A DNA stretch of 64,000 bases from a phage, in assembly GCA_026110335.1 (NCBI GenBank), contig GCA_026110335.1_3055.1; one strand, written 5' to 3'. Position 1 is the first letter of the stretch, and every line of letters begins with the position of its first letter. Shown one piece after another: positions 2,795 to 61,250 of this stretch. Below the pieces are notes generated by a model. That model ran no database searches. It saw only the letters and a list, made by a program, of their open reading frames with translations, and had not been told where the DNA came from. Position numbers and translations under genes: made by a program.

Positions 2795-3288
2795 AAAGTT
2801 TTAATAACCTCTACAATATCGTCTTGAGAAAGACCGTTAATTAAAATATGATGTTCAGCTGGAGATTTAGAAATTTTAAAGCATGCCTCAACATCTTCTG
2901 CCATATCTGATGCGCTACGATTTGGATTACTAATTCCAAGACGATGCTTTTCTGTCAAAGGATTAACAATGATGTAGCATTTACAGTTATTAATATGAAC
3001 ATTAGGTTGAGTCTGATTAATGAATACTTCACAATCATATTTCGCAAGCTGATTTTCTAAAAAGACTTTCATCTCCTCAACTGCATCAGGAAGCATATCA
3101 CGGGCTTGCTCAAGACGACGATTTCGATATTCTTTGATGGTCGTTTTCCGCTTAACTTGCTTAGCTAAATCTTTCTTAAGATCGGTGATATATCCAACTC
3201 GACGATTTCCTTTAAATACAGAAATCCCATCTGTAGTATCACCATATGCTTCAACGACCATTTCAGTAGTAATAAGCTGTAAATCCAT
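2785..3288 (-). CDS. alc: Alc, inhibitor of host transcription on cytosine-containing DNA
   Basis: 167 aa from second ATG; position between rnlA and pseT as in T4; sequence matches my recollection of T4 Alc. Confidence 0.8.
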   Translation of the reverse strand: MDLQLITTEMVVEAYGDTTDGISVFKGNRRVGYITDLKKDLAKQVKRKTTIKEYRNRRLEQARDMLPDAVEEMKVFLENQLAKYDCEVFINQTQPNVHINNCKCYIIVNPLTEKHRLGISNPNRSASDMAEDVEACFKISKSPAEHHILINGLSQDDIVEVIKTLCM

Positions 3289-3319
3289 CATAAAGTCCTC
3301 ATGTTATGTCAGTAAGACT

Positions 3320-3349
3320 ACTGTAACACAACACGAGGGACTTGTAAAC
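3320..3349 (-). promoter_or_regulatory. candidate T4-type early promoter upstream of alc (weak -10)
   Basis: GTTTAC (rc of gtaaac at 3344-3349), 18-nt spacer, TACAGT-like -10. Confidence 0.3.
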
Positions 3350-3352
3350 AGC

Positions 3353-4944
<1,592 letters not shown>

Positions 4945-10072: not shown

Positions 10073-10933
10073 TTACACCGCCATTTTTCCTTTCAAGACA
10101 CCGTGGGACTGATAATCTTTGAGAACGAAATCTTTAGGCCTGAGTTTAAGAACATATTCCAATTGTTCTTTAGTAGAAAGATAACGGAATTTATAAGGCA
10201 ATCCGCCTATTACCAGTTCACAAAGCTCTTTAGGTTCACGACGCAAAATTTCTTTACATTGTTCGACATGATTCATATAGATATGAGTATTACCACCGGA
10301 AAATATCAAATCTCCTGGAATAAGATTACACATCTTAGCTACAATATGAACGAACGCAGCATATGATGCAATGTTGAATGGCAAGCCCAAGAACACGTCA
10401 ACACTTCTTTGATACCACTGCAAATCCAAATAGCCATTACGCACATTAAACTGATAGAACATATGACAAGGCGGTAATGACATATATTTAAGTTCAGCTG
10501 GATTCCATGCAGAAACAATTTGACGTCTATCATTTGGTAGTTTTTTAATACGATCAACAACTTCTATAATTTGGTCTACACCGCCAAAATCACGCCATTG
10601 TTTTCCATAAATTGGACCAAGTTCACCACTATGATATCCTAAATCTTTTGCTTGATTTTCGTAATTTTCATCCCAGACTGTTTTGCCTTGAATTAATGAA
10701 TTGTGTTGAATTAATCGTAAATCATTGACATTTGTGCTTCCTGATAAAAACCATATTAGCTCAGCAATGCAAGCTTTCCAGGCGAGCTTCTTAGTTGTTA
10801 CCGCAGGAAAACCTTTAGTTAAATCCCAGCGTAATTTAGTACCGAACAAAGCAATTGTTCCTGTGCCTGTTCGGTCATCGGTTTCATAGCCATTTTCAAA
10901 AATGTCTTTAATTAAATCTTGGTATTGTTTCAT
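10073..10933 (-). CDS. td: thymidylate synthase, uninterrupted (no intron)
   Basis: 286 aa continuous ORF with ThyA active-site region (LPPCH) and C-terminal MAV; T4 td is split by an intron, this one is not. Confidence 0.9.
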
Positions 10934-10978: not shown

Positions 10979-12175
<1,197 letters not shown>

Positions 12176-12185
12176 ATTATTTTCC

Positions 12186-12428
12186 TTAAACAGACTTTTT
12201 CACAATTTTCCAATCAGCTTTAAACTGTTCAACGTCAGAATGGTAAATCCAAAATCCTGCGCTTTCTCCATCCTCATAAAGAGGGCATCCATCGCATTCA
12301 TCTTCCCATCCAATGTCACGTAAAAGATGTTCAGCTTTTTCAACAAGTTCAGAATCTTTACCGATGATATTAAAATACCATTTACCTCTAACTTCCGAAT
12401 CTTTGATGCTCTGACGTTGTAATCTCAT
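12186..12428 (-). CDS. hypothetical protein (80 aa), frd.2-like
   Basis: ORF track; preceded by early promoter. Confidence 0.45.
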   Translation of the reverse strand: MRLQRQSIKDSEVRGKWYFNIIGKDSELVEKAEHLLRDIGWEDECDGCPLYEDGESAGFWIYHSDVEQFKADWKIVKKSV

Positions 12429-12454
12429 TTTATTCTCCTCAAGTTGATAAGGCT

Positions 12455-12484
12455 ATAGTATCATTACCATAGCCTGTTGTAAAC
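12455..12484 (-). promoter_or_regulatory. T4-type early promoter
   Basis: GTTTAC -35, 18-nt spacer, TACTAT -10 on minus strand; A/T-rich UP-like region. Confidence 0.55.
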
Positions 12485-12486
12485 AT

Positions 12487-12714
12487 TTATTTTTGAATTA
12501 AGCCCATATAAAATTTAGCATCTTCAGGATACATGCCATCACAATACTCATTGGTCATAAAACTGATAAGGTCTTCAAGAGGACCTTGGACTTCAATTTG
12601 AATACTAAAGAATTGAGTATCTTTAATGTAAGCCATACTCAAAGAAGGATAACGATTGCGGATAACTTCGTAAGTGTATTCAAAATCAACAATATCAATA
12701 TTAACCTTAGCCAT
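12487..12714 (-). CDS. hypothetical protein (75 aa), paralog A ([13 protein letters not shown]...)
   Basis: Start at MAKVNID; about 55 percent identical to ORF 13198..13425. Confidence 0.5.
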
Positions 12715-12743
12715 TTTATTTTCCTCATGTAGTTGATAGGGTA

Positions 12744-12773
12744 ATAGTATCACACTACTACCCTACTGTAAAC
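12744..12773 (-). promoter_or_regulatory. T4-type early promoter
   Basis: GTTTAC-N18-TACTAT on minus strand. Confidence 0.55.
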
Positions 12774-13153
12774 TACTTTTTGAAAGTTTTTCGCAAAAGT
12801 TCAATGATTTCATCTACATTGTTTTCGTCTACAATGCAGTGAATTTTTGTTACGCCAGAAACCGGGTCTTTGACTTCATCTTCTTCAGAAGTCGGTTCTT
12901 TATACTCACGAAAACAATGAAATTCGTCTTCGCAAATTTCTAAAAGTCTATCTTTGAGGTAAAAATGCTTTCCATTTGCGCATTCAATGTGTTTTACTGC
13001 TTTATATCCATTAGCGACGGAAACTTCTTTAACTTCAAACCATCCGCCATTATCTCGAATGGCTTTAACTATTGATGAATTAGAACACGGACTATAATTA
13101 ATAAATGTATCAATAAGTCTTGGAATAAGTTCATACTTTTTACCAGTATACAT
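12773..13153 (-). CDS. hypothetical protein (126 aa)
   Basis: ORF track. Confidence 0.45.
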   Translation of the reverse strand: MYTGKKYELIPRLIDTFINYSPCSNSSIVKAIRDNGGWFEVKEVSVANGYKAVKHIECANGKHFYLKDRLLEICEDEFHCFREYKEPTSEEDEVKDPVSGVTKIHCIVDENNVDEIIELLRKTFKK

Positions 13154-13197
13154 TGCGTTTTCCTCATTTTAATAGGGGCTTGATAGCCCCTTGATAA

Positions 13198-13425
13198 TTA
13201 CTGTTCAATAAATCCTGTGTAAAATTCTACATCTTCAGCATCCATACCGTCGCAGTATTCATTAACCATAAACTGTTTAAGACGATTTAAAGGACCTTCA
13301 ATAACAACTGAAACATTACAATTAGGATCATTTAGTGCGCTTATGATACTAAGTTCAGGATAACGATTACGAATAATTTCTTCAATATATTCAAAATCAA
13401 CAACATCAATATCAATTTTAGCCAT
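13198..13425 (-). CDS. hypothetical protein (75 aa), paralog B ([13 protein letters not shown]...)
   Basis: Start at MAKIDID; paralog of 12487..12714. Confidence 0.5.
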
Positions 13426-13468
13426 ATTATTTTCCTCTTTAATCATCAGCAGTATTGCCGATAGTTGT

Positions 13469-13498
13469 ATAGTACCATAAAGCTTTATGCTTGTAAAC
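13469..13498 (-). promoter_or_regulatory. T4-type early promoter
   Basis: GTTTAC-N18-TACTAT; part of a conserved promoter cassette repeated in the window. Confidence 0.6.
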
Positions 13499-13520
13499 CG
13501 TTTTGTGAAAAAATTTTAAA

Positions 13521-13548
13521 ATAAAAAAGGGGGACCTCTAGGGTCCCC
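13521..13548 (-). terminator. intrinsic terminator downstream of gene 32
   Basis: GGGGACC-tcta-GGGTCCCC hairpin followed by T-run on minus strand. Confidence 0.65.
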
Positions 13549-13570
13549 GATTAATTAGTAATATAATCTA

Positions 13571-14479
13571 TTAAAGGTCATTCAAAAGGTCATCCAGGTC
13601 CGTGTCATCAGCACTAGATGAACTGCCAGAGCTTGAACTCATAAAATCATCTTCAGTTTTTGTATTGAAGTCATCAACATTGAATGCATCCAAATCATCA
13701 GCAACTTTATCAGCTTTCTTAGCGGCAGTTGCTGCGGCACCACCCATAGCAGCAGTTCCCATAACTTGACTGAACTTAGTGCTCAGTTCTTCAAATGATT
13801 TAAATTTATCTTTAGAAGTCATTTCAGAAAGGTCAACCATTTGTTCGAACAGTTCTTTCTGGAAAGATTCATCATCAATGTTTGGAATCGCAGATTGATT
13901 CAGGAATTTAGATTCGTCGTAGTTACTAAAACCAGAAACTTGTTTAACTTTCAGTACAAAGTTAGCACCTTCCCATGGACAAGTTACATCAACCGGAGTT
14001 TCACCCATTTCAACATCAACCGCAATCATTGCATTGATTTTATCCCAGATTTTCTTACCGAAACGGTATTTAAATACTTTACCTTCGTTTTCTGGAGCAG
14101 CTGGGTCTTTTACTACAAGAATGTTAGCCCAGTAAGAAGTTTTACGTTTAACAAGACTGTACTCTTTATTGTCAGTGTTATACAAATCATTTTTACTGAT
14201 GTACTGACATACTGGACAAGAATCGTAATCACCGTGGGTAGATGAACAGTTTTCAATATACCATTTACCATTTTTCTTGAAACCGTGATTTACAAGAATT
14301 GCGAATGGTGCTTGTTCATCATTTTTAGACGGAAGAAAACGAATTACTGCTTGACCGTTACCCGCATTGTCGAGTTTCAGTTTCCACTCGCCTTTATCTT
14401 CAGAAGAAAAACCACCTTTATTTCCAGCCAGTTTAGCCATTTGTGCAGCGAGTTCAGCAGTAGATTTACGTTTAAACAT
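13571..14479 (-). CDS. 32: single-stranded DNA-binding protein gp32
   Basis: 302 aa; [17 protein letters not shown]..., zinc-binding residues, acidic C-terminal tail; matches recalled T4 gp32. Confidence 0.95.
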
Positions 14480-14513
14480 TTTTATTTCCTTTTTAATTTA
14501 ATTAACAGTTGGT

Positions 14514-14545
14514 GCTATGACGATGTATGACCTCATAGCTGGTCA
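14514..14545 (-). promoter_or_regulatory. gene 32 autoregulatory translational operator (mRNA pseudoknot)
   Basis: Transcribed strand reads TGACCAGCTATGAGGTCATACATCGTCATAGC, matching the recalled T4 gene 32 leader pseudoknot, followed by A/U-rich leader before ATG. Confidence 0.7.
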
Positions 14546-14562
14546 GTGAGATAATTATAATC

Positions 14563-14570
14563 TATTTATA
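14563..14570 (-). promoter_or_regulatory. late promoter (TATAAATA) upstream of gene 32
   Basis: Exact TATAAATA on minus strand. Confidence 0.5.
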
Positions 14571-14578
14571 ATAAGCAA

Positions 14579-15232
14579 TTAATACTTGCAGGATTTCACA
14601 GTTTCAATGAAAACACTTTTGGCTTTCTGTGAATCAATATTTAAAATTTTTCTATAAGCCTTTAACTTTATAGAATAATTATTCCAGACTAAATTATCAG
14701 TCTGTTCATCATGTTTATCAATTATATTTAAAAACGAATCAAGCAAGATAAACGTCTCAAACGAAATTATATTCGATTGAAGCAGTTTAAAAATATAACT
14801 TGATTGAACTTTTGGATTATACTCAAAGATTTCTTTAAAAGCAGAAACTTCAACTTTTTTACTAAAATAATAAATGTTGCGAATATCTTCTTCAAACTTA
14901 AATTTAATTTGCTTTAAGCGTCCGATATATTCACGATAAAACACAAGTGCATCAGCGTCAGAGATGTCACCAATCCAAGCATCCTGGTTAGCAACCAGAT
15001 TGCTTATAAAGATTAAAGCAAGTTCCTTTAATTTATATTTTTCTGATAACTTCTGGAAAAAATACTTATCCCTTCGCTTTTGATAAGCGGCATCAGACAC
15101 CCGCATGCACCAATTATACTTAATTACATCATACTTTCCATTCATATGTTGTTTTATCATTAAGTATAATTTATAAACTGATTTACCATCAATATATCTT
15201 TCACCACCAGCAGGCATGCGGAGTTTAATCAT
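14579..15232 (-). CDS. 59: gp59 helicase loader
   Basis: 217 aa; position between 33 and 32; length and sequence consistent with T4 gp59. Confidence 0.85.
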   Translation of the reverse strand: MIKLRMPAGGERYIDGKSVYKLYLMIKQHMNGKYDVIKYNWCMRVSDAAYQKRRDKYFFQKLSEKYKLKELALIFISNLVANQDAWIGDISDADALVFYREYIGRLKQIKFKFEEDIRNIYYFSKKVEVSAFKEIFEYNPKVQSSYIFKLLQSNIISFETFILLDSFLNIIDKHDEQTDNLVWNNYSIKLKAYRKILNIDSQKAKSVFIETVKSCKY

Positions 15233-15567
15233 AGTAGAAAATCTAATGTATTAGTTTTTTCACAACGAACAACAGAAGGACGTAAAAGATTTTCGTCAAT
15301 AGCTTCTGACTGAATTTTTTCAATTATACCCGAAGGAATAAATTTAGCAAATTGAGTTTCAGGAATAGAATTTTCTTCCAAGAATGCTGTTGTAGCTTCA
15401 AGATAACTCATTCCAAACTCTTCTACCATTTTTTCAATAATAAATCCATTTTCTTGACGATCAAGAAGCTTTGCTATTTCATCCTTTTCTTTCTTAATTG
15501 AAAGTTCTTTTTCTGAAAGACCGGTCTCATCGACCGGACGAATATCATTTAGAGAAAACTGTGTCAT
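15229..15567 (-). CDS. 33: gp33 late transcription co-activator
   Basis: 112 aa from MTQFSLNDIRPV; matches recalled T4 gp33. Confidence 0.85.
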   Translation of the reverse strand: MTQFSLNDIRPVDETGLSEKELSIKKEKDEIAKLLDRQENGFIIEKMVEEFGMSYLEATTAFLEENSIPETQFAKFIPSGIIEKIQSEAIDENLLRPSVVRCEKTNTLDFLL

Positions 15568-30144: not shown

Positions 30145-30174
30145 ATAGTACCACAGTATGCTTTGGTTGTAAAC
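30145..30174 (-). promoter_or_regulatory. T4-type early promoter for motA
   Basis: GTTTAC-N18-TACTAT with A/T-rich upstream region. Confidence 0.6.
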
Positions 30175-33283: not shown

Positions 33284-33313
33284 AATAGTACCACAAAGGA
33301 ACAGTCTTGTAAA
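33284..33313 (-). promoter_or_regulatory. T4-type early promoter
   Basis: GTTTAC-N18-TACTAT. Confidence 0.55.
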
Positions 33314-33499
33314 CAACTTTTTTAAAAATATTCGTAATAAATGTGAATACCAACTACTACCGCTGAAACCTGTGCAACCCACCACGCGCAAGCAATAAGT
33401 ACAGAATTCAAAATTTTCATAATAACCTCATCACAAAAGTAAATGTTAAACAAATTACTGGAATACTAATTAACCAAACAAAACACCACCACAATGAAC

Positions 33500-33790: not shown

Positions 33791-33820
33791 ATAGTACCAC
33801 AGTCCTTGTGGTATGTAAAC
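33791..33820 (-). promoter_or_regulatory. T4-type early promoter
   Basis: GTTTAC-N18-TACTAT; same cassette sequence as at 13469 and 30145. Confidence 0.6.
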
Positions 33821-54353: not shown

Positions 54354-54383
54354 ATAGTATCTCAATTTCTAACAAAAGTAAAC
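54354..54383 (-). promoter_or_regulatory. T4-type early promoter
   Basis: GTTTAC-N18-TACTAT. Confidence 0.55.
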
Positions 54384-61220: not shown

Positions 61221-61250
61221 ATAGTACCATAGAAGAACAGGGATGTAAAC
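61221..61250 (-). promoter_or_regulatory. T4-type early promoter
   Basis: GTTTAC-N18-TACTAT; same cassette as at 13469, 30145, 33791. Confidence 0.6.

Follow-up and report, generated by a model that had tools for sequence, protein, structure and literature searches.

Phage T4 carries a single frd.3 gene, in the order 32-frd.3-frd.2-frd.1-frd. Its 75-aa product (UniProt P39508, 'uncharacterized 8.8 kDa protein in frd-Gp32 intergenic region') falls in Pfam family PF05798 and in phrog_1764. The literature we found on frd.3 and PF05798 consists of mentions in connection with expression, NAD caps and pan-genomes. In a combined transcriptome and proteome study, T4 frd.3 RNA and Frd.3 protein were both classed as early (PMC9697503, supplements 4 and 6), and frd.3 mRNA is among the abundant NAD-capped transcripts of T4 (bioRxiv 10.1101/2024.04.04.588121). 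Knock-down of T4 frd.3 by CRISPRi-ART was scored 'Not Fit', with no fitness effect in the laboratory host; frd.2 and gene 32 were scored as fitness genes in the same data (PMC11879866, supplement 15). Dispensability of Frd.3 in one host is compatible with a conditional accessory role.

In the portions of Arbiol et al. (2010, PMC2839356) drawn on here, a PeSL is an early promoter fused to a stem-loop and located between small ORFs of variable regions, and one described class has the stem-loop overlapping the -10 box. PeSLs are reported there to bring about the insertions, deletions and replacements that distinguish close relatives, and their shuffling can excise one ORF together with one PeSL as a mini-circle. 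The T4-type promoter consensus given in the corresponding portion of Comeau et al. (2014, PMC4122927) is TTTACW-N17-TAYWAT. The PeSLs described in these portions of the two papers come mainly from RB49/phi1, the PST/T4 pair and nt-1/KVP40, and the frd.3 locus is not among the examples given there.

Two frd.3 genes in a T4-like locus

We analysed a 64,000-nucleotide stretch of phage DNA (NCBI GenBank assembly GCA_026110335.1, contig GCA_026110335.1_3055.1; hereafter the window), which comes from a Tequatrovirus. The part of interest is the T4 32-frd.3-frd.2-frd.1-frd region on the minus strand, in which we refer to the two frd.3 genes as copies A and B:

13571-14479, minus: gene 32, followed by gene 59
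13530-13548, minus: intrinsic terminator of gene 32
13469-13498, minus: predicted early promoter of copy A (also for frd.2), conserved in T4
13198-13425, minus: frd.3 copy A (75 aa, pI 4.05), immediately following gene 32 as frd.3 does in T4
13175-13190, minus: stem-loop GGGGCT-TGAT-AGCCCC between copy A and frd.2
12773-13153, minus: frd.2, 126 aa, PF03197 at E 2e-33, between copies B and A
12744-12773, minus: predicted early promoter of copy B, its -10 box overlapped by a PeSL-type stem-loop at 12736-12766
12442-12729, minus: inserted cassette of ~286 bp relative to one-copy Tequatroviruses (ribosome-binding site, copy B and one promoter-stem-loop)
12487-12714, minus: frd.3 copy B, 75 aa, pI 4.27
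12455-12484, minus: predicted early promoter serving frd.1; its stem-loop (AGGCTAT...ATAGCCT) spans 12450-12475
12186-12428, minus: frd.1 (DUF5417), PF17438 at E 1e-32, downstream of the insert
11930-12175, minus: acidic ORF between frd.1 and frd, 81 aa, phrog_3183, no Pfam family
11316-11930, minus: frd, 204 aa, compared with 193 aa in T4
10979-11350: ORF between frd and td, 123 aa, not in T4
10073-10933, minus: td, 286 aa, thymidylate synthase

A preliminary description of this DNA had reported two related 75-aa ORFs with an unrelated 126-aa ORF between them. Both ORFs are present, on the minus strand, at the coordinates it gave and with the consensus motifs it quoted, and we identified the intervening ORF as Frd.2. 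The homology between the two proteins stands, but the figure of about 55% identity does not: BLASTP aligned them without gaps at 38/75 identities (51%; 69% positives, E 9e-29). The pair had also been treated as unnamed. Copy A matched PF05798 (Phage_FRD3) at E 4e-32 and 110.9 bits and copy B at E 5e-36 and 123.4 bits, each over residues 1-75 of 75, which for this 75-position profile is well above the curated gathering threshold of 28.1 bits. Both copies also lie in the interval from gene 32 to frd of a T4-like phage, the locus to which the family is tied, with gp32, Frd.2, Frd.1 and Frd around them. They are thus members of a named family, that of T4 Frd.3, still with no characterised homologue; in PHROGs, copies A and B, Frd.2 and Frd.1 all fall in families of unknown function.

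Both copies share with T4 Frd.3 its length, the full-length profile match, the locus after gene 32, an early promoter and the 5' leader, and are 69% (A) and 68% (B) identical to it. They differ from T4 in number and type: T4 and nearly all of its relatives have one frd.3, whereas the window phage has two allele types at two positions, neither of them T4-type. The copies lie 711 bp apart in the same orientation and are ~70-75% identical in DNA. Each start codon (at 13425 and 12714) is preceded by a GAGGA(A)AATAA Shine-Dalgarno sequence; the longer ORFs listed by program, and the 82-aa versions in databases that start MIKEENN, are read-through of this ribosome-binding site.

Searching phage records with tblastn, we found frd.3 in 734 records at 738 places, with at most 4 records having two places; one of these, Jbel, has a single copy in the 32-td locus. 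The copy number check proposed in the preliminary description, which had placed the pair in a variable region, thus gives one frd.3 for nearly all relatives and the same two-copy layout for one. That relative, Escherichia phage VEc74 (MT932213), is the only database genome with the order 32-frd.3-frd.2-frd.3B-frd.1, and the only one of the 734 records to span the Tequatrovirus frd.1-B-frd.2 junction. Its copy B protein is 100% identical to that of the window, with two synonymous differences in the gene, and its position A holds a 76-aa allele of RB51 type that is 76% identical to the window copy A. The same B beside a different A indicates that the two positions were exchanged independently. 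The two-copy layout was therefore already in GenBank, and we found no discussion of it in the literature.

Small ORF size is the one feature that would suit an artefact, either a duplication made in assembly or a pair of untranslated pseudo-ORFs, the two ways in which the preliminary description had said it might fail. A DNA identity of ~70-75% is too low for a repeat that was collapsed or expanded, VEc74 shows this layout in an independent genome, and a metagenome contig (L023) has the order B-frd.1-ORF81-frd. The ORFs have strong Shine-Dalgarno sequences before each ATG, and T4 Frd.3 protein is detected by proteomics. Nei-Gojobori estimates of dN/dS are all well below 1: 0.12-0.17 when copy B is compared with its Gaprivervirus and Dhakavirus relatives, 0.21-0.36 when copy A is compared with other alleles at position A, and 0.37 between the two copies. 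By this measure, both copies are under purifying selection. With DNA divergence, VEc74, dN/dS and T4 expression all against it, we regard an artefact of either kind as scarcely credible.

Several neighbouring features differ from T4. The td gene is uninterrupted, the T4 group I intron with I-TevI being missing, and the gap between genes 32 and 59 (14480-14578) measures ~100 bp and lacks the homing endonuclease gene segG found there in T4. The 81-aa ORF is missing from T4 and found in JB75 and VEc74. An Rfam scan of 11000-15500 returned nothing meaningful. Copy B contains a terminator-like inverted repeat, AAGGTC-CTCTTGAA-GACCTT (12568-12587), in the codons of its conserved GPLEDL motif; the repeat also occurs in the T4 allele and not in copy A, and probably arises simply from what these codons have to encode.

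Source of the second copy

The preliminary description read the pair as tandem paralogs, which implies local duplication followed by divergence within this genome. Homologous ORFs with a spacing of 711 bp, a common orientation and the same promoter pattern are what such a duplication would leave, and copies made in place should be each other's closest relatives. In a gene-by-gene comparison across 20 loci they were not. Copy A shares 99% identity with the allele of JB75, 76% with the RB51/VEc74 type and 69% with that of T4. Copy B is 85-91% identical in protein and ~92% in nucleotides to the frd.3 of VR26, VR25, KIT01 and RZ, compared with 51% to A, and T4-type position-A alleles are nearer to B (68%) than is the window's own A. 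The PeSL downstream of B (AGGCTAT/ATAGCCT) is near-identical to the frd.3-frd.1 intergenic element of VR26 and was not copied from the local one, and VEc74 carries the same B beside a different A. Local duplication is, on this evidence, very improbable, and that part of the preliminary description falls.

The similarity of copy B to other genera extends to its position. In Gaprivervirus and Dhakavirus phages (VR26, VR25, VR7, KIT01, IME08 and RZ), frd.3 comes after frd.2 and before frd.1, the placement that copy B has, and is followed by a promoter-stem-loop that copy B shares. VR26 and KIT01 have the order 32-frd.2-(extra ORF)-frd.3-frd.1, so that their single frd.3 immediately precedes frd.1; RZ likewise has frd.3 after frd.2, with further ORFs between it and frd.1. 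In contrast to these phages, copy B sits in a Tequatrovirus backbone beside a resident frd.3, and the extra ORF of ~85 aa between their frd.2 and frd.3 was not brought along with it. At the DNA level, copy B with its flanks reaches 92% identity to VR26, a Gaprivervirus, and 88% to KIT01, a Dhakavirus, whereas gp32 of these phages is only 62-65% identical to that of the window, and Frd.1 of the window is 99% identical to T4 Frd.1 but 71% (70-73%) to the Gaprivervirus/Dhakavirus protein.

These values also bear on an older origin for the two positions. They correspond to the positions used by the two lineages, as would be expected if a T-even ancestor had carried both copies and most Tequatroviruses had since lost B, Gaprivervirus and Dhakavirus had lost A, and the window phage had kept both. 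Reciprocal loss of this kind predicts that B is as diverged as its flanks (71% for Frd.1, 62-65% for gp32), but B is at 85-91% in protein and 92% in nucleotides. The two-copy state occurs in at most 4 of the 734 records, and a Gelderlandvirus-like genome (L019) also has the T4 order only. We consider retention from a two-copy ancestor improbable, if less so than local duplication.

Because copy B is far closer to Gaprivervirus/Dhakavirus frd.3 than are the flanking genes or copy A, it is, as judged by these comparisons, a recently imported xenolog, that is, a cross-genus allele and not a local duplicate. An allele of B type (at least 80% identical to copy B in protein) is present in 80 records, and all inspected loci among these are of Gaprivervirus/Dhakavirus type except VEc74. 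From this allele frequency we infer transfer from a Gaprivervirus/Dhakavirus-type phage into Tequatrovirus; the closest candidate donor matches copy B at only 92% in nucleotides, and no exact donor was found.

Promoter-stem-loops and the inserted cassette

An exact GTTTAC-N18-TACTAT match lies upstream of each copy, as the preliminary description had noted; both matches are on the minus strand. It had not mentioned a third, upstream of frd.1. The window has eight such sites, all on the minus strand, compared with 0.01 expected from shuffles; the other five are at 30145-30174, 33285-33314, 33791-33820, 54354-54383 and 61221-61250. In standard notation these early promoters are TTTACA-N17-TACTAT with a TG-extended -10, a form in which the three at the locus fit the PeSL consensus, and early promoters were predicted independently at equivalent sites in the annotation of fPS-90. 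Judged from sequence, transcription of each copy would start at its own sigma-70 early promoter within the first few minutes after infection. The early-promoter pattern is absent from the 44-nt spacer before frd.2, and we infer that frd.2, having no promoter of its own, is co-transcribed with copy A. Terminators are annotated in JB75 and fPS-90 at the same place as that of gene 32 in the window, where it would keep upstream transcription from running into the frd.3 unit.

Stem-loops overlap the -10 box at two of the three promoters. That at copy B (TAGGGTA.../...TACCCTA) has 14 bp, -18.9 kcal/mol and a z of -3.9, and that at frd.1 has 11 bp, -14.7 kcal/mol and a z of -3.3; neither is followed by a U-run. 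The stem at the copy A promoter is weak (z -1.45). The frd.1 and copy B promoters thus have the stem-loop that marks a PeSL, and the arrangement, a sigma-70-type early promoter with a stem-loop between small ORFs of a variable region, is that of described PeSL cassettes. The stems at this locus differ in lacking a U-run, and promoter activity, terminator activity and circle formation here are predictions. The GC-rich stem-loop at 13175-13190 (-12.9 kcal/mol, z -2.7) is conserved in T4, has neither promoter nor U-run, and may be an RNA-stability or processing element.

Most related phages align to ~87% of the locus in two pieces, the missing piece being copy B. JB75 matches the window at 11900-12497 and 12712-13600, with the split at 12497/12712, and its two matches overlap by 72 bp of JB75 that make up the frd.2-frd.1 intergenic promoter region, so that at this locus the window equals JB75 plus 286 bp. 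A direct repeat (D7) has the same spacing of 286. We resolved the junctions by multiple alignment with JB75, T4, VEc74, VR26, KIT01 and RZ. Both fall in a repeated PeSL/ribosome-binding-site motif, TATCAACT...GAGGAnAATAAAATG, within which the exact ends of the cassette are ambiguous; indel junctions in such a motif are a further mark of PeSL shuffling. The PeSL upstream of copy B is the element directly before frd.1 in JB75 and T4, and, from the alignment, the promoter-stem-loop that now precedes frd.1 (12455-12484) arrived together with copy B.

The inserted unit matches in composition the one-ORF, one-PeSL mini-circle described for PeSL shuffling. In the mechanism that we propose, copy A would be the resident allele in the T4 position, and this lineage would have acquired copy B within a 286-bp cassette, made up of a ribosome-binding site, the ORF and one PeSL, by homologous recombination at the PeSL/ribosome-binding-site motifs that precede frd.1 in both lineages; the process would be the PeSL-mediated modular shuffling of Arbiol et al. 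(2010). As a whole, the stacking of two divergent frd.3 alleles by cassette insertion is the best explanation of the locus, and we hold it to be likely. In T4 (L003, 2506-2643 in the frd.2-frd.1 gap), the same PeSL junction holds a different filler of ~90 bp with a short ORF start, which suggests that the junction before frd.1 may be a recurrent insertion point.

The gene family (PF05798), the locus and the PeSL shuffling mechanism had all been described, so that the two-copy frd.3, though rare, is an ordinary example of a known process and not a new kind of system. What is new is modest: the 'duplicate' is a cross-genus allele that cassette recombination put where such alleles normally sit, frd.3 is unusually mosaic, and a recombinant of A by B without frd.2 probably occurs in nature. 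The locus offers a sequence-resolved example of T-even phages moving single small genes between genera, with PeSL cassettes serving as recombination sites that are themselves portable. A metagenome contig (L022, positions 3001-3330; Logan contig, SRR29999948) shows what is likely a follow-on product, with a chimeric frd.3 and frd.2 lost; its Tequatrovirus backbone has gene 32, the chimeric frd.3, the AGGCTAT PeSL and frd.1. This frd.3 has a T4-type N-terminus and hairpin to residue ~52 and is of window-B type after that. It is probably the product expected from A x B recombination in a two-copy phage. At the crossover, the stretch identical to the window B allele is only ~6 nt, and a double crossover with a donor, or a join made in assembly, is a possible source of the same sequence.

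Predicted fold, the variable hairpin and candidate roles of Frd.3

The structure prediction that the preliminary description had suggested was carried out with AlphaFold2, which gave a common fold at high confidence (pLDDT 93.1 for copy A and 94.5 for copy B). Both copies have the same predicted beta1-alpha1-beta2-beta3-alpha2-alpha3 topology with a one-residue C-terminal bridge, and are predicted to be small acidic ferredoxin-like alpha+beta domains. A ferredoxin-like assignment calls for a beta-alpha-beta-beta-alpha-beta topology together with significant matches to one superfamily; Foldseek against the PDB gave generic matches only, none below E 0.09. Against BFVD, the only proteins retrieved were Frd.3-like and uncharacterised, and came from T4-like phages of Erwinia, Serratia, Klebsiella and Shigella, and a sequence search of the PDB with Frd.3 gave nothing at E <= 1.

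A profile search of 1.8 billion representative proteins returned 8 hits, 6 of them genuine, and so few among so many indicates that the Frd.3 family is confined to T4-like phages. The phrog_1764 profile has 391 positions, of which Frd.3 matches 317-391, and we therefore searched for fusions. None of the 8 hits is a genuine Frd.3 domain fusion; two candidates (P0018 and P0022) were internal-repeat proteins matching short stretches and were rejected as spurious.

Across 22 diverse Frd.3 alleles, 28 columns are invariant. Variation is concentrated in residues 26-44 (beta2-loop-beta3), where column entropy is highest and copies A and B share 2/19 residues, compared with 36/56 elsewhere. The ratio of nonsynonymous to synonymous changes is higher in this hairpin than in the rest of the protein (Fisher p 0.02-0.05). 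Between T4 (L003) and the RB51 type (L017, VEc74 copy A), codons 26-44 have 12 nonsynonymous and 4 synonymous differences and one codon indel, whereas the rest of the gene has 0 nonsynonymous and 3 synonymous differences, and dS is 0.53 in the hairpin and 0.10 elsewhere. Positive selection on the hairpin was considered and is not established: omega exceeds 1 in two pairs only, over very few sites, and dS is raised in some pairs as well. This raised dS favours imported mosaic segments over positive selection in place, and the segment coding for the hairpin in the T4/RB51-type comparison looks like an exchanged module. P0025 and other database alleles are likewise mosaics of N-terminal/hairpin and C-terminal modules, which places frd.3 among the more mosaic, allele-rich early genes of the T4 group.

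Each copy would yield a small, very acidic single-domain protein without a catalytic signature. It would most likely act by binding a partner protein stoichiometrically, using the helical and N-terminal surface that hardly varies, with specificity tuned by the hypervariable hairpin; with two alleles, a phage would have a wider range of partners or hosts. The basis of this model is size, charge, timing and the pattern of conservation, and we put forward only tentatively, as a reading with the odds somewhat against it, that Frd.3 is a non-enzymatic early accessory protein whose conserved face binds a partner while the hairpin modulates specificity. The variable hairpin could also simply be less constrained.

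Anti-defence is a more doubtful reading, in which Frd.3 proteins would be anti-defence factors and two stacked alleles would broaden the host defence variants neutralised. The proteins are small and acidic, early expression goes with no fitness cost of knock-down in a laboratory host, and allelic diversity is extreme, with mosaicism focused in one hairpin of genomes that are otherwise near-identical. The same features suit host-takeover or regulatory accessory proteins, no characterised protein is similar by sequence or fold, characterised anti-defence inhibitors included, and the literature that we found does not link Frd.3 to defence; PADLOC returned noise only. A further reading, equally speculative, is that Frd.3 may be a modular specificity factor: a conserved scaffold would bind a constant partner and an exchangeable beta2-beta3 hairpin would recognise variants of host immunity or host factors, with hairpin and C-terminal modules shuffled by recombination within the gene and two alleles occasionally stacked via PeSLs to broaden host range. 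If this were true, frd.3 would define a new family of very small anti-defence or host-range determinants and two-copy phages would be natural 'bivalent' variants. Two natural alleles in one genome offer a simple test of a host-specific or counter-defence role.

Frd.3 and Frd.2 were also considered as a co-evolving pair, an idea that we rejected as their alleles assort independently: JB75 is 99% identical to the window in Frd.3 and 78% in Frd.2, and another genome (L016) is 96% identical in Frd.2 and 69% in Frd.3. Elsewhere in the window, the minus strand at 3983-4120 gave a weak tblastn match to Frd.2 (32% over 53 aa, E 0.006), which may mark a distant paralog resembling Frd.2.
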